Source: a virus
Virus record (IMG/VR): IMGVR_UViG_3300021956_000001
Length of the DNA stretch: 64,000 bases
Direction: 5' to 3' (one strand)
Below, in pieces: positions 3,470 to 63,534 of the stretch. The notes under the pieces were generated by a model. The model did not search any database, was not told the DNA's origin, and saw only the letters and a program-made list of their open reading frames with translations. Numbering within the stretch: position 1 is the first letter of the stretch; every line of letters starts with the position of its first letter. The position numbers were made by a program, and so were the translations under genes.

Positions 3470-4489
3470 ATGAACACAGAAAGAACAACAACAATCGGAG
3501 AGAAATTTGTATTTATGGATAAGACTATGTCTATCCTTAATGTAGGTATGGCTACAAACAAGAATGTAGTGTTATATGGTCCAGGTGGACATGGTAAATC
3601 AGAAATCACATTAGATTTCTTGAAAGAGAAGGGAATTGATCCATATATCATCACTATGGGTACAGGTATGACAACAGACAGATTGTTTGGTGGTCTTAAC
3701 ATACCAACATTTGAAGCATCAGGTAAGATTGAATACTTGGTTGAGAATAGTTTCATGAACCATGAGTATGTTATCTTCGAGGAGATGTTTGATGCACCAG
3801 ATTTTATCTTGGAGCAATTGAAAGATATCATCTCAAGTGGTGTATTCAGAAATGGTACACAGAAGTTTCCTATCAAAACTAAGTTCATTGTATGTTGTAC
3901 AAATAGAACTCGTGAGGAATTCTCTAAGAATATGTCATTGAAAGCATTAATGGAGCGTTTTCCTCTTGAACTTAATGTTGTATGGGATAATTATACAGAG
4001 ATTGCTTACAACAAGTTGTTAGAAACTAAGTTTGGTGAAGGTAACATTGATCCAATCATTCCATTCTTGTTACAAGAGTATGCTAAGAATGGTATTGTTA
4101 TTTCACCTCGTGTAGCTGTAACAGCTTACCAAGTGTTTGAGCAATGTGGACCAGATTCATTAACATTTATTGCTGAGTTTGCTAAGAAACCATCATTAAT
4201 TGCTGATGCTATCAAGAAATTTGAATCAACCATCAAGTTTAGAGAGATGTCTGCAGAGATTTCTGAATTGATTGATCTATTGGAAGCTAATAGTATGTCA
4301 ACTAGTGATGCTACAAAACAGTTCAAGAAAGATCTTACAGAGCTTCAAAACAAATTAGCAGCTGTTAAGAAATTAACTGTTAATGATGATATTGCACACA
4401 TGCTTGCATCATTGACTAAAGCTGTTGGTGAGAAAGTGAAAGCTTTTGATAAGAAACAACAAGTAGCACAAATAGTAGTAGAACTATAA
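3470..4489 (+). CDS. AAA+ ATPase, MoxR/CobS-like
   Basis: Walker A LYGPGGHGKSE, Walker B-like YVIFEEMFDAP; ~340 aa; followed after 2 nt by a vWA protein as in CobS-CobT / MoxR-vWA pairs. Confidence 0.8.
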   Translation: MNTERTTTIGEKFVFMDKTMSILNVGMATNKNVVLYGPGGHGKSEITLDFLKEKGIDPYIITMGTGMTTDRLFGGLNIPTFEASGKIEYLVENSFMNHEYVIFEEMFDAPDFILEQLKDIISSGVFRNGTQKFPIKTKFIVCCTNRTREEFSKNMSLKALMERFPLELNVVWDNYTEIAYNKLLETKFGEGNIDPIIPFLLQEYAKNGIVISPRVAVTAYQVFEQCGPDSLTFIAEFAKKPSLIADAIKKFESTIKFREMSAEISELIDLLEANSMSTSDATKQFKKDLTELQNKLAAVKKLTVNDDIAHMLASLTKAVGEKVKAFDKKQQVAQIVVEL

Positions 4490-4491
4490 TT

Positions 4492-5862
4492 ATGTGGGAA
4501 GATGAATTTGATTATGGATATGGGTCTTCAAAGGCCCATAATCCATATAGCTACACATATGGTGGTGGCTACAAAAGTAAAGGCAGAACTAGTTGGTCTA
4601 GAACTAGTTGGTCAGGTTTTTCATTTGCAACAGCATTTGAAGATGATGATGCTGATTTGATGGTGAAAGACCCTGTGTCTTATATTACACCAACAAAGGT
4701 TGAGATCAAAAGAAAAGCAAGTGTTTGGAAAGATGAGGCTATTGATACTATCAAAGAGTTAGCACGTGTGTGTTATTTCAAAATGTTAGATGAGAAAGAC
4801 TATCTAAGAGAAGATCTTGCAGACTGGGAAAATATAGATGATGAATTGAAAGGACAATATAGTCAAAAGAAAGAACTATATGATAGCATTTATGATCAAT
4901 TTATTCCAGGATTTACACCATTAGAGCAAGCAATTGCTATATTTCTTCAATTACAAAGTAGTAATGCTGAAAGAGATGGAGGTGAGAAGTCAGATGAACT
5001 AGATATGCAGAAGACATTAGGATTTGATAGAGAATTATATTCTGATCCAACAATCAACGAACAACTAAACTATAATGAGTTAAGTAAAGAGAGAAAGATG
5101 GAGATCATGAATAAGATTTCTATCATTGGTGATCTTGGTACTCAGTTTAAAGTGGAGAAAGAAGTTGAGGAGAAGATTGTAGCAAACTCTGATCAGTATG
5201 CTAAGAAGATTATGAGAGACTATTCACAGTTTCACATGATTGATCTATATCAAAAGATGTTTCCTAACTTTAGAAGTAAGTTCTTAACTAAAGACTTAAC
5301 AGTTAATGTTCCTGTTGATAGAAAAGAACAAAAGCAGAAGATTATTATTCTTTTGGATTACTCTGGATCTATGGATTATGATGAGAAACAAATCTGGGTT
5401 AATGCTATTCTTATAGATAGATTCAGATATGTTATGAAAGGAGAAGCTGAAGTGTTCTTTAGTTATTTTGTTGAACACACAGGAGAACTTCAATTTCATC
5501 ATGTTACTAATAGAGAGGAAGTTATTCAATTCTGGCAAATGTTCTCTAATGAACCTGATGGTGGTACAACAGCAATTGGTGACATTGTAAACTATGTAGC
5601 TGATCAAGTTGTTAATCATCATAAGTTACACAATCTTGATATTGATTTGTCAGAAGAGAAACCAGAAATCTTAATCATCAATGATGGTCAAGATAGAGTG
5701 CATTCAGAGAAGTTCCCTTATAAAGTGAATGCTATATCATTAATGCAATTTAGCGATCAATTAAAAAATCTTTGTGTTGCAACAGATGGTAAGCAAGTGA
5801 AGGTGGAAGAAAATGATGTTGTTACAGCATATTCTAAACAAGGAGAACAAATCATCTCTTAA
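4492..5862 (+). CDS. von Willebrand factor A (vWA) domain protein, CobT-like partner of the AAA+ ATPase
   Basis: C-terminal MIDAS DxSxS (IILLDYSGSMDYD), GGTTAIGD, IINDGQD; low-complexity/acidic N-terminal half. Confidence 0.75.
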   Translation: MWEDEFDYGYGSSKAHNPYSYTYGGGYKSKGRTSWSRTSWSGFSFATAFEDDDADLMVKDPVSYITPTKVEIKRKASVWKDEAIDTIKELARVCYFKMLDEKDYLREDLADWENIDDELKGQYSQKKELYDSIYDQFIPGFTPLEQAIAIFLQLQSSNAERDGGEKSDELDMQKTLGFDRELYSDPTINEQLNYNELSKERKMEIMNKISIIGDLGTQFKVEKEVEEKIVANSDQYAKKIMRDYSQFHMIDLYQKMFPNFRSKFLTKDLTVNVPVDRKEQKQKIIILLDYSGSMDYDEKQIWVNAILIDRFRYVMKGEAEVFFSYFVEHTGELQFHHVTNREEVIQFWQMFSNEPDGGTTAIGDIVNYVADQVVNHHKLHNLDIDLSEEKPEILIINDGQDRVHSEKFPYKVNAISLMQFSDQLKNLCVATDGKQVKVEENDVVTAYSKQGEQIIS

Positions 5863-6116: not shown

Positions 6117-6661
6117 AAACCACACATAGAAAGACAAACAAGTAAGTTAAAAATATTTGTGAGTGCAAATTATGAAAACTCTCACTTATAACACTATCAA
6201 GAGGTGTTATGTTTGTTGAGTATGATAATAGTTAAAGCGTACACCTGACTTTTTGCGTTAGCTCTACTTTAATGATTTATCCCAATCTTGATGGATGTGT
6301 GGTTTTATAATAAAATAGCTAAGCTGTGTAAAGTGTCAGAACTGATAATCTGTTAGAAGCTATAGGTTAAACATTGAATACCTTTGTAATAACTAAAGAA
6401 CGATAATCGTGAAACCAAGTAAGGGTAGAGGTGTTCATATAAGTTTTACATAAAGATACTATCAGTAATGGTAGATGTGTTGTTCCCTTGAGAAAGGAAT
6501 TGGAGAAATGTGGCAATGGGTTTCCAACTCCCACACAACACAAATGAGTTCTCAGCTTGACCCTACTCTTATATGGGCGTAAATATAAAGAAACAGTCAT
6601 ATAAGAAAGAGGGTGCTAGATTTAAAAAAGTAATGATAAGTGTCCTCACATGAGGAATATT

Positions 6662-6984
6662 GGGGGCGACTGGTTTTGACAGGTTACCACTAATTAATAC
6701 AATCAGCCAGAGAGATAACTGTAAACTAAGGTGAATTTAATTAATTGGCAACAAAACAACTCGTGTAGTAGCTCTAGGAGCAAACGCACAAATCGAAGCT
6801 AACATGAACAAAGTATTCTCTCTATTGGGAGAAGAAGTTGCTGTAGCAGCCTAAATTGAATAAGGATTTCTCTGTTAGATTAAACAGAGTGGTGGATCGT
6901 TAAGCCTAGCTTGACCCTAAATAAGCTGTATAAATTGTATTAATGAAAGTAGTTTGGACGTGGGTTCGATTCCCACCGCCTCCA
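6662..6984 (+). ncRNA. ssrA: tmRNA (SsrA), full length, phage-encoded
   Basis: 5' GGGGGCGACTGGTTTTGACAGG and 3' GGACGTGGGTTCGATTCCCACCGCCTCCA match tmRNA ends; 7-bp acceptor (6662-68 / 6977-83) with G3:U70; T-arm GTGGG/CCCAC; internal tag frame 6747-6851 ending ..EEVAVAA then TAA 6852-54. Confidence 0.85.
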
Positions 6985-7138
6985 CTAGAACTTGGAATTG
7001 TAGATACATTGATTCCTTACAAACCTTGTAATGTTGGCCGTTATTATGAAGTGCTAATCTGCAATTCTGTTACATTACGTGTACATTTATTAAATAGCGA
7101 ATAATAACATAGGTGACTAATAGGAAAGACTATTAAAT

Positions 7139-7327
7139 GATTGAGTGGCGGAATAGTTAGGAATATTAAAGGTCCTTTCATGGTAGACGCTTTATGTATT
7201 TGTGATATAAAAAAATTGCTATGGTCAGAGTCTTGGCAAAGTTACCGCATAGATGGTGTACATAACACCTAAACAATACATAAGATGGTGTACAACAATA
7301 CAGGTTCGAATCCTGTCTCAATCACAG
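7139..7327 (+). other. tRNA-like element (tRNA-Leu-like D-arm and canonical T-arm/acceptor, about 110 nt too long)
   Basis: GATTGAG (7139-45) is the exact complement of CTCAATC (7320-26). T-arm ACAGG-TTCGAAT-CCTGT. 5' part TGGCGGAAT...GGTAGACGC resembles class II tRNA-Leu D-arm with an insertion. No clean cloverleaf could be folded by eye. Confidence 0.3.
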
Positions 7328-7458
7328 CAGTTGCTTGATGTCAAATATGTACAGCAACAGACATTGGAGAAATTTGGCTTCTCATGAATGTTAAGTCCTA
7401 TCCACACAGAGAAGGAGTTGAGTACTTACGGAGGAAGTAGAGTCCAATCTCAACAACA

Positions 7459-7486
7459 AGGCTATCAGAAATGGTAGCCTTTTTTA
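7459..7486 (+). terminator. rho-independent terminator closing the RNA island
   Basis: AGGCTA (7459-64) / TAGCCT (7475-80) followed by TTTTTTATTTT. Confidence 0.65.
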
Positions 7487-7517
7487 TTTTATATTAATCC
7501 TTAATAACTATAAAAAC

Positions 7518-7664
7518 ATGAAAACAATTAAAATGAAACCAACTGAGTTTTATCAGTTCAGACAATTAGCATTTGCAATGAGTGTTGCATTTGTATGTAC
7601 AATAGCACATGGTGTGTATATTGTAGAGGCCAATATAAATCAACTTGAGAAGTTGGGTTATTAA
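7518..7664 (+). CDS. hypothetical protein (48 aa, below cutoff)
   Basis: Hand translation MKTIKMKPTEFYQFRQLAFAMSVAFVCTIAHGVYIVEANINQLEKLGY; preceded by AATCCTTAATAAC motif; replaces antisense ORF 7558..7764. Confidence 0.4.
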   Translation: MKTIKMKPTEFYQFRQLAFAMSVAFVCTIAHGVYIVEANINQLEKLGY

Positions 7665-50991: not shown

Positions 50992-51265
50992 TTTTCTTTT
51001 TTTCTGGTGCTGGTTGAGTAGCTGGTGCAGCTTTTTCTTTAATGATTACAGTTTTACCTGGAGCAGCTTGTTGTTGCTTTTGTTGGTTAGTGTTTGTAAT
51101 ATTAATTACTGGAGCAGGTGCAGGAGCTGCAACTTCTTGCTTAGCTTCTTCTTTATCTTCACCATTTAACTTAGTTGTTACAAATCCACCTACAGCCACT
51201 GTAATTGTACTTGCCAATCCTATAAGGATGTTCTTGATTGAGTTTCCTCCTTGTTCTTCGCTCAT
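50972..51265 (-). CDS. TM protein with low-complexity A/P/Q/K tail (97 aa)
   Basis: ILIGLASTITVAVGGFVTT helix. Confidence 0.5.
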   Translation of the reverse strand: MSEEQGGNSIKNILIGLASTITVAVGGFVTTKLNGEDKEEAKQEVAAPAPAPVINITNTNQQKQQQAAPGKTVIIKEKAAPATQPAPEKKKNEEEPW

Positions 51266-51633
51266 AATAAATTAATTAAGGTTTTACCTATTTGTTGATT
51301 GTTTGAGTTATATAATTGAAGCTCGTATGAACTTCTTGGTAATGCTTTTGTATATACAGATAGTAAGTTATCTCCAGCTTTAGCATCTACTGATTCTGAA
51401 GAAACTGTCTTACCAGATAAGTCAACTATTTTAATTGTCACTTTATCTGCTGCTTCTAGTCTTACATTCATCTGTGCTTCTGCAGTAACAAAGTTTGAAG
51501 CAAGTTTAATACCAACAGTGCTAAGTCCTAACTCTGCAGGAACAGAAGATGAAGGAGCAACAATTGCATTATCAACCTCTGAACAAGAAAACATAAATGT
51601 AAACAATATAATTGGGATGAGTAATCTTTTCAT
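51262..51633 (-). CDS. small lipoprotein whose mature part resembles a T9SS type-A C-terminal sorting domain
   Basis: MKRLLIPIILFTFMFSC; KVTIKIVDLSGKTVSSESVDAKAGDNLLSVYTKALPRSSYELQLYNSNNQQIGKTLINL matches the beta-sandwich pattern of por_Secre_tail domains. Confidence 0.45.
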   Translation of the reverse strand: MKRLLIPIILFTFMFSCSEVDNAIVAPSSSVPAELGLSTVGIKLASNFVTAEAQMNVRLEAADKVTIKIVDLSGKTVSSESVDAKAGDNLLSVYTKALPRSSYELQLYNSNNQQIGKTLINLL

Positions 51634-56773: not shown

Positions 56774-57115
56774 TTAAAAATTAATATTTGGAATATATCC
56801 TATTAAATCAAATAATGTTCTATAATCAACAGTTATTTCTACTTCATTTGGTATATTTTTATTTGATATCATTACTATACAATCATCAATTAATTCAACA
56901 TTTGTATTTGGATTATCAGAATGATTAGTATATCTTCCTAAATCATCTGTTTCATTCCAGGGTTCCTGCATTGTTTCTTTTTGCCAAAGATATCTTGACT
57001 CTTCACTTTGAGCCTCTTTAGTTACCCATTTACCAATAATAGTATCTATATTAATATTAGATGTAGATACTATTTTAATATTATTTAAATCAGATTTATC
57101 TATTTTATAATTCAT
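56774..57115 (-). CDS. minimal SET-domain protein (putative protein lysine methyltransferase), 113 aa
   Basis: LGRYTNHSDNPNT (cf. RFxNHSCxPN) and NEVEITVDYR (cf. GEELTxDY); size like chlorovirus vSET; TAATG-coupled to the upstream gene. Confidence 0.5.
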   Translation of the reverse strand: MNYKIDKSDLNNIKIVSTSNINIDTIIGKWVTKEAQSEESRYLWQKETMQEPWNETDDLGRYTNHSDNPNTNVELIDDCIVMISNKNIPNEVEITVDYRTLFDLIGYIPNINF

Positions 57116-57957: not shown

Positions 57958-58323
57958 TTAGATTAGTAAAGTGGTAGTACTAGTTGTTGTTGGTGCCCAA
58001 GGAGAAGGTACTGGTTCATACTTAGGAGCTATTTGAGCTTCAATCTGTTTTGTAATACGCTCTTGCATATGTACTTTATCAGAAACAGCCTCTAACCAAG
58101 CTACAACATTTTCTGGTTGTAAGTCTGCAAAAGGAATATAGTTTTCTGTATCTGTAGGAAGAGGCATAGGAGTTGCTCCTATAAAGACACCTTCAATACC
58201 ATCTTCGTTTATACCAACATAGTTATATCTAACTCTTGTTACTACGTCTGTTAATTCTCCCAACACTGGAGCTATCTCCAGTTTCATTGTGTCATCTGTT
58301 AAGAATGTGAATGTTATTGCCAT
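57958..58323 (-). CDS. hypothetical fibre-module protein (121 aa)
   Basis: TAATG-coupled to fibre gene; ends PTTTSTTTLLI. Confidence 0.55.
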   Translation of the reverse strand: MAITFTFLTDDTMKLEIAPVLGELTDVVTRVRYNYVGINEDGIEGVFIGATPMPLPTDTENYIPFADLQPENVVAWLEAVSDKVHMQERITKQIEAQIAPKYEPVPSPWAPTTTSTTTLLI

Positions 58324-61300
58324 TATTTATTTATTAATTGGTTAACTAATTGTTTTAATTCTTCTATTTGTGTTTGTTGTTCTTTTATTGCTTCGATAAA
58401 TAATCCAGCTAAGTTACCATATGCTACTGAGTATTTATCTTTTTCATCAATTCTAACAACCTCTGGTATTACATTTAATAATTCTTGAGCTATAACTCCC
58501 ATATATATTGTGCTATCTCCATCAGGGTTAATATCATTTCTGTTAAATGTAACTCCTCTTATAGATTGTATTTTTGATACAGCGTTTTCTATAGTCTTTA
58601 TATTTTCTTTTAATCTAGCATCTGAGTATGCTATGACATCACCAGGAGAAGTAAAATCACCATTATTATTAAATTTCCATATCTTAGGTGTTGATAATGC
58701 ACCATCTCCTGTAAGTTTAATGGCACCGTATCCATTGTCACTAGCAATAGGTCTAACATATCCAAACTGTGTAGTATTAGCATATCCTGCTGTTGTTGTA
58801 CTATATCCTTGAATAAGTGGGTAAAAGTAATCAGCATTAGCTGTTAATCCTCCATTACTATTTCCAGTAAATGGAGCTACTCCTACAGACCCACCTGTAG
58901 ATATAGAATCAGCACCTGGATTTGTAGCTGTTATTCTTCCTGAATTACTTATAGAAGCAACATTTCCATTTGTTGTATTTCTAAATATCCAACCTCTATT
59001 AGCTGTTGAATCCATAGTAAAGTATGTAGCCCAATCTGCTGATACAGCTCCAAAAGTACCAAATGTTGCTGTTCCAGCAAACATTATACCATAAGTAGGT
59101 TGACCTCCCCCATAGTTAGCTCCATACAATGATAATCCATTACCTGAAGTACTAGATGAGTTATTTACTCCTATCCATGGTGCTTGCAATCTATTTGCAA
59201 CATCTACCACATTTAAGTTACTAGTAGACGCTGGATCCAAGTAATAACCAGTATTATTATAATCGTAATAAATAGTTCCATATACAGCTCCACTAAAGTT
59301 AGAATAGCTAGAATAATTTCCAGAATGCAATATAGATACCCAACTGTTCCATGAACCAGAAGTCATTCTTCTAAGTCTCCAGTCATCACTCCAAAAAGAT
59401 CCAGTCATCTGCCATCTATATCCATCTGAACCTGACCAAGAACCTCCAGCTACAGTAAGCCAATTCCACCAATCAGTACTAGGCATTCCAGTAACACTTG
59501 TTCCAAAATAAAATCCAGAAGAGTTAGAACTATCAGATGTGTTGGCATTACCACTACTCATTCCTTTAGATCTACCATTAGCATTATCTCCAAAAACTTG
59601 TCTATCTGCTGCAATTCCACCTAAACTTGCAGCATCACCTGAAGTATCTGAATAAGCAACTTCAACTGAATCTGGAGTAGCTGGACTTGCTTTAAATCTC
59701 CATCTGTTAGCAGATGAATTATAAGTTAAATATCCATAATATGGATTAGCACTACCATATGCATAAGCTGCATCTGTTGAATATAGTTTTGATGAATTTG
59801 TTGCATAAACTGCTGTTGTAGGTGTTGTACCACTAGTACCAGAAACACCACTAGATCCACTTGTTCCATTAACTCCTGAGGTTCCATTAACTCCTGAACT
59901 ACCAGATGTTCCATTCACACCACTTGTGCCTGATACACCTGATGTACCAGAAACTCCTGAAGTTCCACTTACACCACTTGTACCATTAAAGCCACTGGTT
60001 CCATTTGATCCATTAACTCCACTTGTTCCGTTCACTCCAGAAGTACCATTGATTCCTGATGTACCATTAACACCAGAAGAACCAGACGTTCCATTAATAC
60101 CACTGGTACCATTTATTCCACTTGACCCTGAAGATCCTGAAGTACCGTTTACACCACTAGTTCCATTTACTCCTGACGTACCTGCTGTACCACTTGTACC
60201 ATTCACACCAGATGTTCCTGACGTACCATTTATTCCTGAACTTCCTGAAGATCCATTTAGACCAGAAGATCCACTAGTTCCATTAATTCCACTTGTGCCA
60301 CTTGTACCATTTATTCCTGACGTTCCACTAGTCCCATCAATACCAGAAGAGCCAGATGACCCACTAGTACCAGTTGTTCCACTGGTTCCATTAACACCAC
60401 TACTTCCTGATGTCCCATCAGATCCTGTAAATCCAGAACTTCCAGATGTACCTGTTGTACCTGACGAACCAGAGGTCCCTGTAGTACCAGAAGTACCATT
60501 AGTTCCAGCTGCAGCAGCAATAGATGTTGTTACATATGAATATTCACTATCTTCTGTATACCAAGAAACAACTTTTGATGTACTCTCATAGTTACTAAAA
60601 TAAATCTTAACAATCATTCTATCTGTAGCAGCTACAGCAGTATGAGGAAATACTACATCAAGATTAGTTTCTGATATAATTCCCATACCATTCCAACTAA
60701 TAATAGAAGGAGATGATGTTATTAAAGATCCATAAGGAGTTCCTGTTGAATTAGCTAATTGTAATGTTACGTAAACTTGTATATCATCATTAGCTTGAGG
60801 TTTCATTGCATGTAAGTGAAATCTCTGTACACCTGATGGAATAATTGTAAATCCAAATTGATCACTAATAAATGATTGGACAAGGTCATCATGTTGATTA
60901 CCAGCCATTGTAAGAGTGACAGTTTGTAATCCAGTTGTTGTAGGAGTAGTAGATAATGCTTTATATGGAGAAATAGAAGAGTTTTGACTATTATTAAAAT
61001 AATAAACTCTACCACCACTCACTCCATCTACACCACTAGTACCTCCAGTTCCACTTGTTCCTGTTGTACCGCTTGTTCCACTAGAGCCACTAGTACCACT
61101 GGTTCCAGTAGTCCCAGAAGTTCCAGAGGTACCATCAGATCCATTAGACCCACTGGTTCCTGAACTCCCACTAGTTCCACTAGTTCCATCTATTGCACTT
61201 GTACCTGACGTACCACTAGTTCCCCCAGTACCATTAGTTCCCGAAGTTCCTGAGCTACCAGAGCTTCCTCCAGTTCCATCTGTGCCTGAAGATCCACTAG

Positions 61301-61664
61301 AGCCTGAAGTACCATCAATAGCTGATGTACCAGATGTTCCAGAAGTACCTCCTGTTCCATCAGTACCACTAGTACCTGAAGTGCCAGACGTACCATTAGA
61401 ACCTCTTGTACCACTGCTACCGCTAGTACCATTAACTCCAGGAACTCCTGATAAGTTAACAGTCCAATTACAGCATTCACCACTTCCTACAAATTTATCT
61501 GGAGTGATTACTAACTCTCCAGTAGAAGGATTATATGATACAACTTGACCGTTTATGTAATTACAATTGTCACAATATAACATTAAAAAGTCCCCAGGAC
61601 CATAAGCTAGTCCTGAAGAGATAGTAATTGTTAAATCGCAATATGGAGAAGATGGACAACTCAT
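58323..61664 (-). CDS. tail fibre/spike protein with two collagen-like tracts and C-terminal peptidase S74 intramolecular chaperone domain
   Basis: Long G-X-Y runs (GTSGSSGTNG...); C-terminus YSDARLKENI..IRGVTFNR..MGVIAQEL..VAYGNLAGLFIEAIKEQQ matches the endosialidase-type chaperone domain. Confidence 0.85.
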   Translation of the reverse strand: MSCPSSPYCDLTITISSGLAYGPGDFLMLYCDNCNYINGQVVSYNPSTGELVITPDKFVGSGECCNWTVNLSGVPGVNGTSGSSGTRGSNGTSGTSGTSGTDGTGGTSGTSGTSAIDGTSGSSGSSGTDGTGGSSGSSGTSGTNGTGGTSGTSGTSAIDGTSGTSGSSGTSGSNGSDGTSGTSGTTGTSGTSGSSGTSGTTGTSGTGGTSGVDGVSGGRVYYFNNSQNSSISPYKALSTTPTTTGLQTVTLTMAGNQHDDLVQSFISDQFGFTIIPSGVQRFHLHAMKPQANDDIQVYVTLQLANSTGTPYGSLITSSPSIISWNGMGIISETNLDVVFPHTAVAATDRMIVKIYFSNYESTSKVVSWYTEDSEYSYVTTSIAAAAGTNGTSGTTGTSGSSGTTGTSGSSGFTGSDGTSGSSGVNGTSGTTGTSGSSGSSGIDGTSGTSGINGTSGTSGINGTSGSSGLNGSSGSSGINGTSGTSGVNGTSGTAGTSGVNGTSGVNGTSGSSGSSGINGTSGINGTSGSSGVNGTSGINGTSGVNGTSGVNGSNGTSGFNGTSGVSGTSGVSGTSGVSGTSGVNGTSGSSGVNGTSGVNGTSGSSGVSGTSGTTPTTAVYATNSSKLYSTDAAYAYGSANPYYGYLTYNSSANRWRFKASPATPDSVEVAYSDTSGDAASLGGIAADRQVFGDNANGRSKGMSSGNANTSDSSNSSGFYFGTSVTGMPSTDWWNWLTVAGGSWSGSDGYRWQMTGSFWSDDWRLRRMTSGSWNSWVSILHSGNYSSYSNFSGAVYGTIYYDYNNTGYYLDPASTSNLNVVDVANRLQAPWIGVNNSSSTSGNGLSLYGANYGGGQPTYGIMFAGTATFGTFGAVSADWATYFTMDSTANRGWIFRNTTNGNVASISNSGRITATNPGADSISTGGSVGVAPFTGNSNGGLTANADYFYPLIQGYSTTTAGYANTTQFGYVRPIASDNGYGAIKLTGDGALSTPKIWKFNNNGDFTSPGDVIAYSDARLKENIKTIENAVSKIQSIRGVTFNRNDINPDGDSTIYMGVIAQELLNVIPEVVRIDEKDKYSVAYGNLAGLFIEAIKEQQTQIEELKQLVNQLINK
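59826..60512 (-). repeat. collagen-like G-X-Y coding tract (approximate bounds)
   Basis: About 229 codons of G-[TSVI]-[SNTG] triplets. Confidence 0.8.
61020..61448 (-). repeat. collagen-like G-X-Y coding tract (approximate bounds)
   Basis: GVPGVNGTSG...GVDGVSGG with two GTSAIDGTSG interruptions. Confidence 0.8.
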
Positions 61665-61689
61665 TATATTTTTATTTTAGTTTTATTTA

Positions 61690-63534
61690 TTAGCTACATG
61701 GAACATAAGTGTCACCTAAGAATGCTCCACAACATAAAGATGTTGATACTATTGAATATACACAAATTTCTATTGGATACTCTCCATAAGTCAATGTTAC
61801 AGATTGTTCTATATTTGAACAATCTATATAATTTACAGTTGCTGAATCTCCAGGATTTTCAGTTGGTGCAGTGAATGTCCACTTAGTGCACGATAATGGT
61901 GCTATTGTTGTACTAGTAGTTGTAGTTGTACTAGATGTACTGGATGTAGTAGTAGTTGTACATAATGATAAAGGAAGAGTTATACAACTTGTAGAGTTTC
62001 CTCTATATGAAAATGTAGCTCCTGAAGAACCACTGGTTCCTGTTGTTCCTGAACTACCTGATGTTCCAGTTGTACCACTAGTTCCGCTTGTACCTCCAGT
62101 ACCATCTGTTGCAGATGTTCCACTAGTACCTGTAGTTCCTGATGTTCCTGTGGTACCAGATGTACCGTTTGAACCATTAGATCCTGAAGTACCTGTTGTT
62201 CCCGAAGTACCATCAGAACCATTACTTCCACTTGTACCAGAGGTAGCACTAGTTCCAGAGCTTCCTGAAGTACCATTACTTCCTCGTGTACCACTTGTTC
62301 CATTGGTACCATTAGTACCGTTAAAACCTGATGTACCTGAGGTACCATTAGAGCCATGTGTTCCAGAAGAACCATTGCTTCCACTAGTTCCATTTGATCC
62401 GTTAGATCCAGAAGTTCCAGCAGAACCATTAGTCCCTGATGAGCCACTAGTTCCATGAGAACCAGTTGTACCACTAGATCCTGTAGTTCCACTAGTACCG
62501 TTGGTACCGCTAGATCCATTACTTCCTGAAGTTCCAAATGTACCGTTTATTCCACTAGTACCTGATGTTCCATTTCTACCGTTACTACCAGAGGTACCAA
62601 ATGTACCATTTAATCCTGAAGTACCACTAGATCCGTGAGACCCTGATGTTCCACTTGATCCATTACCACCATCAGCTCCAGAGGTGCCTGATGTACCATG
62701 TGTACCACTACTACCAGAAGAACCTGAAGAACCGTTTGATCCAGAGGTACCAGTAATACCTGATGTACCACTAGACCCACTATTTCCACTAGTTCCACTT
62801 GTACCATTAATAGCAGAACTACCAGAAGTACCAGCAGTCCCTGAAGAACCAGTTAATCCACTACTTCCACTTGTACCTGTAGTTCCAGAGCTACCACTTG
62901 TTCCATGTGAACCTGTTAACCCTGAGCTTCCAGAAGTCCCAGAACTTCCATCCCCACCAGAGGCACCAGCAAGATTGATTGTCCAAGAAGAATAAGTTCC
63001 TGATCCAACACAATTAACTGGGTTTATAAATGCTAATTCTCCTGTAGATGGATTATATGATGTTACTGTAGCTTCAAATGAATTATTTTGATCATGGGCT
63101 ATAATAATAGTTTGTCCTACACTATATGCTAATTCTGAATTAACAACAATTAATGCAGGATCGCACATGTCAAATGTTGAATAGGAAGGAGTTCTATATC
63201 TATCTCCATTCTCTCCTGATGTTCCTGATGTTCCAGCACTACCAGAGGTTCCACTAGTACCAGTTGTACCAGAAGTTCCTGAACTACCACTTGTAGCAGA
63301 TGTACCAGAACTACCATGAGTCCCAGAGGTTCCAGATGTTCCTGTTAAACCACTAGTACCTGACGTACCAGATGTTCCACTAACACCACAAATAGCTTGA
63401 TCAATTTTGATCAGAGCCATTTCTAAAGTGTCATTAGTATTAATTCCAGTACATATTAAATTACCTCCTTCGTAAAATACGCAGGTGGTGCTTAATATGA
63501 TAGGACAGGGAGCAGCTTCGCAAAATGGATTCAT
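61690..63534 (-). CDS. collagen-like fibre protein (614 aa) with Cys-rich termini
   Basis: Two G-X-Y tracts flanking a domain homologous to the N-terminus of 58323..61664 (SYNPSTGEL..VGSG..W[TI][VI]NL[SA]G); S/T tract near the C-terminus. Confidence 0.8.
   Translation of the reverse strand: MNPFCEAAPCPIILSTTCVFYEGGNLICTGINTNDTLEMALIKIDQAICGVSGTSGTSGTSGLTGTSGTSGTHGSSGTSATSGSSGTSGTTGTSGTSGSAGTSGTSGENGDRYRTPSYSTFDMCDPALIVVNSELAYSVGQTIIIAHDQNNSFEATVTSYNPSTGELAFINPVNCVGSGTYSSWTINLAGASGGDGSSGTSGSSGLTGSHGTSGSSGTTGTSGSSGLTGSSGTAGTSGSSAINGTSGTSGNSGSSGTSGITGTSGSNGSSGSSGSSGTHGTSGTSGADGGNGSSGTSGSHGSSGTSGLNGTFGTSGSNGRNGTSGTSGINGTFGTSGSNGSSGTNGTSGTTGSSGTTGSHGTSGSSGTNGSAGTSGSNGSNGTSGSNGSSGTHGSNGTSGTSGFNGTNGTNGTSGTRGSNGTSGSSGTSATSGTSGSNGSDGTSGTTGTSGSNGSNGTSGTTGTSGTTGTSGTSATDGTGGTSGTSGTTGTSGSSGTTGTSGSSGATFSYRGNSTSCITLPLSLCTTTTTSSTSSTTTTTSTTIAPLSCTKWTFTAPTENPGDSATVNYIDCSNIEQSVTLTYGEYPIEICVYSIVSTSLCCGAFLGDTYVPCS
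62015..62965 (-). repeat. collagen-like G-X-Y coding tract (approximate bounds)
   Basis: More than 300 codons of GTSGSSGxxG triplets. Confidence 0.8.
63200..63387 (-). repeat. collagen-like G-X-Y coding tract (approximate bounds)
   Basis: GVSGTSGTSGTSGLTG...GTSGENG. Confidence 0.8.

Follow-up and report, generated by a model that had tools for sequence, protein, structure and literature searches.

The stretch of viral DNA analysed here, the 64,000-nucleotide (nt) IMG/VR record IMGVR_UViG_3300021956_000001 (hereafter the window), encodes a complete one-piece transfer-messenger RNA (tmRNA), located at positions 6662-6984 of the (+) strand and measuring 323 nt up to its discriminator A6984, according to ARAGORN, Rfam and direct reading. 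It belongs to a long-tag clade of tmRNAs carried by flavobacterial phages. The identity of the RNA, its tag frame, selection at both the RNA and the peptide level, restriction of the family to phages and the host-like character of the tRNA domain are all established in this analysis, and the window gene very probably produces a functional tmRNA that appends alanine plus 35 residues. Phage tmRNAs are already known as a kind, and one member of this family is annotated in GenBank; what is new, as far as the searched literature shows, is the clade as a whole, its near-restriction to phages, its two-part long tag, selected at the peptide level, and its reduced architecture, and no paper analysing the long-tag family, its tag or its expression was found in that literature.

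The presence of a tmRNA at this place is far beyond chance. The Rfam model RF00023 matches with 93.3 bits (gathering score 47; E = 5e-35), with the full model (positions 1-374) covered, and ARAGORN run on the window returns one tmRNA (6662-6985) and zero tRNAs, which bears out the complete phage-encoded tmRNA proposed earlier from the letters alone (the sequence-only reading). The acceptor stem, read directly, pairs 5' GGGGGCG (6662-6668) with CGCCUCC (6977-6983) over 7 base pairs (bp) and includes the alanine identity pair G3:U70, formed by G3 (6664) and U70 (6981), and the T-arm (GUGGG, loop UUCGAUU, CCCAC) occupies 6960-6976; both of them, as well as the in-frame stops described below, were correctly described in that reading. 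Throughout the phage family, G3:U70 and the discriminator A are kept in 79/79 unique full-length members. The 3' tail of the window tmRNA reads A-CUA and, because CUA rather than CCA adjoins A6984, the CCA must come after transcription. The missing CCA, which had been singled out in the sequence-only reading, is thus confirmed for the window, but it is not unusual, CCA being encoded in none of the 79 phage family members and in only 6 of 102 host-type Bacteroidota tmRNAs.

The family was assembled in two ways: isolates were obtained by distant BLAST comparison with phage genomes, and IMG/VR contigs through a 28-31-nt element lying 5' of the tag, at the position of pseudoknot 1. tmRNA-like BLAST matches occur in the Cellulophaga phages Calle_1, phi38:1 and phi40:1 and the crAss-like phi14:2, and in ~30 FpV4-like Flavobacterium psychrophilum phages, so that the family spans three unrelated isolate lineages (Callevirus, Fipvunavirus and the crAss-like phi14:2). 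It is near-restricted to phages: exact matches to the element are present in at least 119 viral contigs of IMG/VR, compared with a single match among 185,579 bacterial and archaeal species genomes, located on a 4.9-kb scaffold of a Flavobacteriales metagenome-assembled genome (MAG). The resulting 124 sequences (123 loci plus the window) comprise 105 complete tmRNAs, which reduce to 79 unique ones of 301-474 nt. The clade is defined by the motif CAGAGAGATAACTG-N(0-8)-AAACTAAGGTGAA, by UAA-NN followed by GGN or GAC, by a tag of at least 24 codons containing Q-x-x-A-N-M-x-x-V, and by location on a viral contig, all of which the window tmRNA displays. Its closest relative in the family (locus L011) has a tag that differs by one residue.

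The frame in which the tag is read is supported by several observations. Two in-frame stops (TGA 6732-34 and TAA 6738-40, by direct reading) are followed by UAA-UU at 6742-6746, positions -5 to -1 relative to the resume codon, a UAA-NN context that recurs in 79/79 family members. The tag open reading frame (ORF), deduced from Rfam and from comparison within the family, extends over 6747-6854, from the resume codon GGC (6747-49) to the stop TAA (6852-54), and its 35 codons specify GNKTTRVVALGANAQIEANMNKVFSLLGEEVAVAA. In the Rfam alignment, the model sequence UAAuU|GCa falls on UAAUU|GGC of the window, placing the resume position at 6747, and the codon following UAA-NN in the 79 unique members is GGC in 39, GGA in 26 and GAC in 14. 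Tag ORFs of these members stay open for 24-49 codons (median 35) and end with TAA or TAG. The distance between the resume position and the GCN-AAY-ATG of the tag core varies, with eight different values from 15 to 51 nt, every one of them divisible by 3, and the intervening segment contains in-frame stops in 0 of 660 codons, compared with 67 and 26 stops in the other two frames. Over whole tags, the frame is open in 73/73 unique ORFs, and both other frames contain stops in 73/73. Taken together, the glycine resume codon GGC 6747 and the 35-codon tag, already advanced in the sequence-only reading, are upheld by the Rfam alignment, the spacing in multiples of 3 and the lack of in-frame stops.

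Within the tag, a codon alignment of the 73 unique sequences delimits a conserved core, QIEANMNKVFSLL in the window (residues 15-27, 6789-6827), which can be written for the family as Q-[IV]-x-A-N-M-x-x-V-[FH]-[SN]-[LI]-[LI]. Q and M are invariant, A, N and V each recur in ~99% of the tags, and these residues survive synonymous change, being specified by four Ala codons (GCN), both Asn codons (AAY), three Val codons (GTN) and both TTR and CTN codons for Leu. Averaged over columns, entropy at the first and second codon positions is 0.77 and 0.76, and it rises to 1.21 at the third. The tag extension and its core are under selection at the peptide level. Judged from the sequence, the hydrophobic positions of the core (I, M, V, F and L) lie on one helical face, and AlphaFold2 predicts a single helix over tag residues 4-34 with a pLDDT of 87, a prediction that carries little weight for a short peptide given as single-sequence input.

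The core is followed by an acidic stretch, then by a hydrophobic residue and AA. Endings in VAA are found in 43 tags and endings in IAA, LAA or MAA in 22, and overall the tags of 73 of the 79 unique tmRNAs end with AA after a hydrophobic or small residue. By analogy with tags of known behaviour, the C-terminal part of the window tag (…EEVAVAA) constitutes an ssrA-type degron of the ordinary kind: a tag of Caulobacter, AANDNFAEEFAVAA, also ends with -AVAA and destabilises proteins (PMC1233412), and the VAA ending, regarded as divergent in the sequence-only reading, is a normal one. The divergent part of the tag is instead the ~25-residue extension on its N-terminal side. With 35 residues, the window tag is ~4x as long as the 9-residue host tag and stands at the upper limit of the published range of 8-35 residues (PMC8012679), which some family members exceed with up to 49. 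As all 79 tags comprise 24-49 codons, compared with 9 residues in hosts, tag length is maintained from one lineage to another.

The structure of the tmRNA is also under selection. Covariation was assessed on 10 hand-written helices (59 pairs) in the 23 members nearest to the window tmRNA in size, where 96.5% of the cells are paired and 25 of the 59 pairs show compensatory changes; 0 of 500 shuffles reach the observed values, and sliding the partners by 1-3 columns reduces pairing to 40-49%. Compensatory changes affect three of the seven acceptor-stem pairs and three of the five pairs of the T-arm (helix 10), which is 100% paired. Helix 2, identified as an inverted repeat and by covariation, links the tRNA-like and mRNA-like parts through H2a (6680-6687/6949-6956), H2b (6693-6703/6934-6944) and H2c (6704-6707/6925-6928), its 23 pairs being 98-100% paired and 10 of them compensatory. 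It leads to the family-specific element CAGAGAGATAACTG-T-AAACTAAGGTGAA (6708-6735, 28 nt), which occupies the position of pseudoknot 1 and is nearly invariant; the sole pairing found in it is a 3-4-bp hairpin of (N)CAG with CUG(N'), whose fourth pair is Watson-Crick in 22 of the 79 members, with four pair types. Two small hairpins lie within the tag frame. The first, GCUC-UAG-GAGC (6771-6781, helix 5), shows G:C replaced by U:A (9 versus 13 sequences) and C:G replaced by G:C in one sequence; the second, UUCUCUC-UAUU-GGGAGAA (6816-6833, helix 6), reaches 87.6% pairing, and a single one of its pairs is compensatory, in 6 sequences. Downstream of the tag, two hairpins (6870-6876/6883-6889 and 6900-6905/6909-6914) stand in the place of pseudoknots 2-4; helices 7-9 include 6 compensatory pairs, in a region where the Rfam posterior probability is low. 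Pseudoknots 2-4 are dispensable in Escherichia coli.

A comparison with host ssrA, suggested in the sequence-only reading, was made against 103 complete host-type Bacteroidota tmRNAs retrieved from metagenomes via their tag. These tags are 9 residues long (GENNYALAA in 84, GETNYALAA in 11), and GETNYALAA, the native tag of Bacteroides, acts as a strong degron. Both groups share the one-piece organisation, G3:U70, a Gly resume codon 5 nt after UAA, a tag ending with AA and a CCA that is usually not encoded, and their tRNA-like domains (nt 1-21 and 291-323 of the window tmRNA) are 91-96% identical. In contrast, host-type tmRNAs measure 358-439 nt and possess a canonical pseudoknot 1, while the 323-nt window tmRNA has the phage element in that position, an element found in 0 of the 103 host-type sequences, and hairpins in place of pseudoknots 2-4; over its middle 270 nt no similarity to them is detectable. 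Because the likeness is confined to the tRNA-like domain and the resume geometry is the same, the phage RNA looks like a descendant of a Bacteroidota tmRNA in which the host-recognised part has been kept and the rest rebuilt. The conserved domain is the part that must fit host alanyl-tRNA synthetase, SmpB and RNase P.

How such an RNA would act during infection can be proposed from these features, and we infer that it is expressed, charged and used for tagging, with consequences for the fate of tagged proteins. The tmRNA would be transcribed from an RNA-gene island of the phage, situated with the replication-side genes; trimming and CCA addition would fall to host enzymes, and charging via G3:U70 to the host alanyl-tRNA synthetase. 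Host SmpB and EF-Tu would bring the charged tmRNA to ribosomes stalled on broken mRNAs, where translation would resume at GGC 6747, add Ala and 35 residues and stop at UAA 6852. The most likely purpose is twofold, one side being a greater capacity for ribosome rescue during infection and the other a changed handling of tagged proteins. Since the tags of the family are ~4x as long as the host tag and share a conserved core, flavobacterial phages probably change the fate of unfinished proteins. The long tag could act as a second recognition element, tagged proteins being handled unlike host-tagged ones through an adaptor or another AAA+ protease, as with SspB-binding residues in E. coli or the Lon-directed tags of Mollicutes; that the conserved extension adds such an element is put forward tentatively and given somewhat less than even weight. 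The sequence-only reading had likewise suggested that the tag may redirect or blunt degradation. A broader proposal is also less likely than not, namely that the amphipathic core is a dedicated recognition module with which this phage clade reprograms the output of host ribosome rescue (towards another protease, adaptor or location, or a gained function), and that the tmRNA is part of a conserved RNA island together with a tRNA-Leu-like gene and a ~135-nt RNA.

Several observations weigh against this interpretation. Most members were retrieved via the motif at the pseudoknot 1 position, so the sample is biased towards it; a scan of viral contigs with an independent anchor added one further member, 109 of its 110 new matches being attributable to chance. 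Inspection of 6708-6735 did not reveal a canonical pseudoknot 1 pairing, nor did inspection reveal the pairing of pseudoknots 2-4, which are reduced to hairpins. No expression, charging or tagging data were found for any family member, and the transcriptome paper on phi38:1 does not mention the tmRNA of this phage. In an all-against-all clustering of neighbouring genes, no protein family occurs in more than 29 of 125 tmRNA loci, and no adaptor or protease candidate emerged. Lastly, the two covarying hairpins inside the tag frame (6771-6781 and 6816-6833) imply that part of the conservation of the tag arises at the RNA rather than the peptide level.

The last two of these points feed the main rival explanation, according to which the tmRNA serves ribosome rescue alone and the length of the tag is without special significance, its conservation reflecting constraints of RNA structure and decoding plus a generic C-terminal degron. 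The compensatory helices 5 and 6, the usual degron formed by a hydrophobic residue and AA, and the lack of a linked partner protein speak in its favour, whereas the A-N-M-x-x-V core lies outside both hairpins and is kept through third-position changes, and 79/79 tags are long (24-49 codons) compared with the 9 residues of hosts; this explanation is accordingly considered unlikely, while being the strongest competitor. Less probable by a clear step is that the tag is not a degron, and either adds a functional amphipathic helix or belongs to a phage RNA that competes with host tmRNA, thereby altering or blocking the fate of stalled products. Peptide-level conservation of a core predicted to be helical fits the first version and a host-like tRNA domain able to compete for SmpB fits the second, but tags that end with AA after a hydrophobic or small residue typify ClpXP-type degrons and are encoded by 73 of the 79 unique tmRNAs, and nothing points to a specific target gene.

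Two further alternatives are effectively excluded. The sequence-only reading had called for ARAGORN or Infernal with tmRNA models to fix the resume codon and the pseudoknots; both call the tmRNA and Rfam places the resume codon at 6747, but no pseudoknot pairing was identified and ARAGORN proposes a resume codon GCA at 6780, with a 24-residue tag ANAQIEANMNKVFSLLGEEVAVAA. Apart from the ARAGORN output itself, only the small hairpin 6771-6781 just before that codon favours this proposal. ARAGORN picks non-homologous resume positions across the family, choosing in several members the GGN right after UAA; the segment 5' of 6780 is in frame and stop-free through eight length classes; and both the Rfam model and host-type tmRNAs set the resume codon 5 nt after UAA. 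The frame statistics and this inconsistent choice among homologues rule out GCA 6780, and GGC 6747 is the better supported of the two by sequence comparison. Just as improbable is a passenger without phage function, either a recently captured host ssrA or an attP-type fragment, since, although tmRNA genes are common integration sites from which phages can pick up fragments (PMC9004378) and the tRNA-like domain shares 91-96% identity with host-type tmRNAs, the whole gene is present and its 5' half is intact, as the sequence-only reading had argued, there is no integrase among window ORFs of at least 95 residues, the RNA is identical to no host-type tmRNA and its middle 270 nt match none of them, the family motif occurs in 1 of 185,579 species genomes (the 4.9-kb MAG scaffold), and covariation indicates long-term selection within phages.

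The window is phage DNA. It encodes tail fibres, a head-protease-like protein and a NinI-like phosphatase, as well as replication and nucleotide genes (DnaB-type helicase, RecA, ThyX, UDG, dNMP kinase and MazG). No close relative of the window phage is present among 50,697 phage records; the best protein match, at 35% identity, is to Chryseobacterium phage MA9V-3, its closest cultured relative. A weak match to a type IX secretion sorting domain, together with the cultured phages that carry the tmRNA family, hints at a Bacteroidota host. Two large collagen-repeat proteins, a small SET-domain protein and the small type IX sorting-domain protein (the weak match) are encoded at 58323-63534, 56774-57115 and 51262-51633, all on the (-) strand, one of the two collagen-repeat proteins bearing a C-terminal S74 chaperone domain, as in tail fibres, and the 'Serglycin' matches of window proteins were dismissed as artefacts of GS linkers. 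Window ORFs of at least 95 residues include no SmpB, Clp, Lon or integrase and, as no protein is linked to the tmRNA either, the latter travels as an RNA gene and must use host factors. A MoxR-like AAA+ ATPase (3470-4489) and a VWA-like protein (4492-5862), both on the (+) strand, lie 0.8-3 kb upstream of the tmRNA, and homologues are found near the tmRNA in ~15-21 other loci, a proximity that probably reflects lineage synteny rather than a functional link. The MoxR-like ATPase is not homologous to the 'ClpX' of MA9V-3, and an equivalence of the two was rejected.

The tmRNA is located within an ORF-poor island of ~1.4 kb (roughly 6138-7560), made of short modules that recur in many tmRNA loci and are up to 100% identical over ~50 nt. 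Upstream modules conserved far above the flanking genes are found at 6310-6389 (at least 20 loci, up to 96%), 6445-6500 (at least 15 loci, up to 100%) and 6533-6556. Closer to the gene, on the (+) strand, the motif AGGGTGCTA(A/G) at 6610-6618 and the leader hairpin CCTCACATGAGG at 6644-6655 each occur once in the 64-kb window, and precede the tmRNA in 14 and 9 of the 79 loci, respectively; a mobile tmRNA cassette may use them as promoter or leader. A scan for sigma-70-type promoters returned 4 sites against 6.5 expected, with a model that does not cover Bacteroidota promoters. On the other side of the island, the unit in which the tmRNA is transcribed probably finishes at a terminator-like hairpin followed by a T-run (7458-7481, +). 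Direct repeats (6320-6336/6922-6938, 6554-6565/6908-6919, 6459-6474/7462-7477 and 6499-6514/7363-7378) tie the upstream stretch to the 3' part of the tmRNA and to the downstream flank in non-collinear order, and may be the debris of an older copy or recombination scars.

Between the tmRNA and this hairpin lie two other putative RNA modules, both on the (+) strand. A tRNA-Leu-like gene of 186 nt (7139-7324), missed by standard ARAGORN, combines acceptor strands GAUUGAG/CUCAAUC and a canonical T-arm around ~150 nt; homologues elsewhere measure 96, 101 and 111 nt, the size of the insertion varying by phage. The copy in L011 retains a classic tRNA-Leu D-arm, GUGGCGGAAUUGGUAGACGC, whereas in the window both the D-arm and the anticodon region carry insertions; the window copy may be a pseudogene, a tRNA with an intron or a handle for processing. 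Directly 3' of it lies a ~135-nt module (7325-7457) starting with CAGCAGUUGCUUGA…, which is found in 22 tmRNA loci and, in 14 of these, stands right after a tRNA-like 3' end (5 after the tmRNA discriminator and 9 after the tRNA-Leu-like gene). Its consensus fold comprises 27 pairs in 4 helices, with 5 compensatory pairs and none broken, and Rfam yields no match to the module at E up to 1. The module is a candidate for a structured RNA not yet described, perhaps released by cleavage after the discriminator.

The long-tag family offers a test system for the question of why phages carry their own tmRNA, being abundant and present in culturable systems, namely Cellulophaga phages and Flavobacterium psychrophilum phages. 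The family differs from host tmRNAs mainly where the tag and its reading are set, and its tag motif, defined and conserved at the peptide level, would allow a direct test of whether stalled proteins meet a different fate through phage action. The findings bear on annotation as well: ARAGORN misplaces the resume codon of these tmRNAs, and in several GenBank phage records the tmRNA is either missing or covered by spurious ORFs.

Among isolates, the tmRNAs of Calle_1 (GenBank MT732432, where it is annotated), phi38:1, phi40:1, phi14:2 and the FpV4-like phages all carry the identical element together with a long tag that contains the A-N-M core and follows the same resume context. The window tmRNA is shorter (323 versus 359-469 nt), its tag has a 5-codon insertion relative to that of Calle_1, containing the small in-frame hairpin, and the window phage is not closely related to any isolate carrying the family. 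The paper describing Calle counts its tmRNA without analysing it. The tmRNA and tRNA-Glu features of the Calle_1 record lie 52 nt away from where ARAGORN and Rfam place them; the records of phi40:1, phi38:1, phi14:2 and the FpV4-like phages lack a tmRNA, and some put 'hypothetical protein' ORFs over it. Cluster C mycobacteriophages also possess complete tmRNA genes, in a lineage distinct from the window family.

Another phage tmRNA, that of Chryseobacterium phage MA9V-3 (locus L125; 22766-23124, -), shares the resume context UAAAC|GGA-AAC, but it is circularly permuted and two-piece, with a 17-residue tag, GNVIDINKYVAKLEVAA, devoid of the A-N-M core, and was rejected as a member of the long-tag family on account of the permutation and the different tag. 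Two-piece tmRNAs have likewise been described in the phage Melnitz, where it is of the alphaproteobacterial type, and in pelagimyophages (PMC9004378); like MA9V-3, these are lytic phages with complete tmRNA genes, of lineages different from the window family. The sequence-only reading had considered full-length tmRNAs to be known in only a few phages, which proved too narrow, as phage tmRNAs are reported in 402 of 18,146 phage genomes (~2%), with proposed roles either in keeping hijacked translation running or in degrading tagged proteins for recycling (PMC9004378). As for the tag itself, a parallel is offered by Mollicutes, whose longer ssrA tag is read by Lon, illustrating that tag sequence determines the protease (PMC9382460). 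Tags in both groups are far longer than the E. coli type, and some phage-family tags likewise begin with D-K or D-N; those of Mollicutes, however, end with …NYAFA in hosts without ClpXP, while the phage tags keep -AA.

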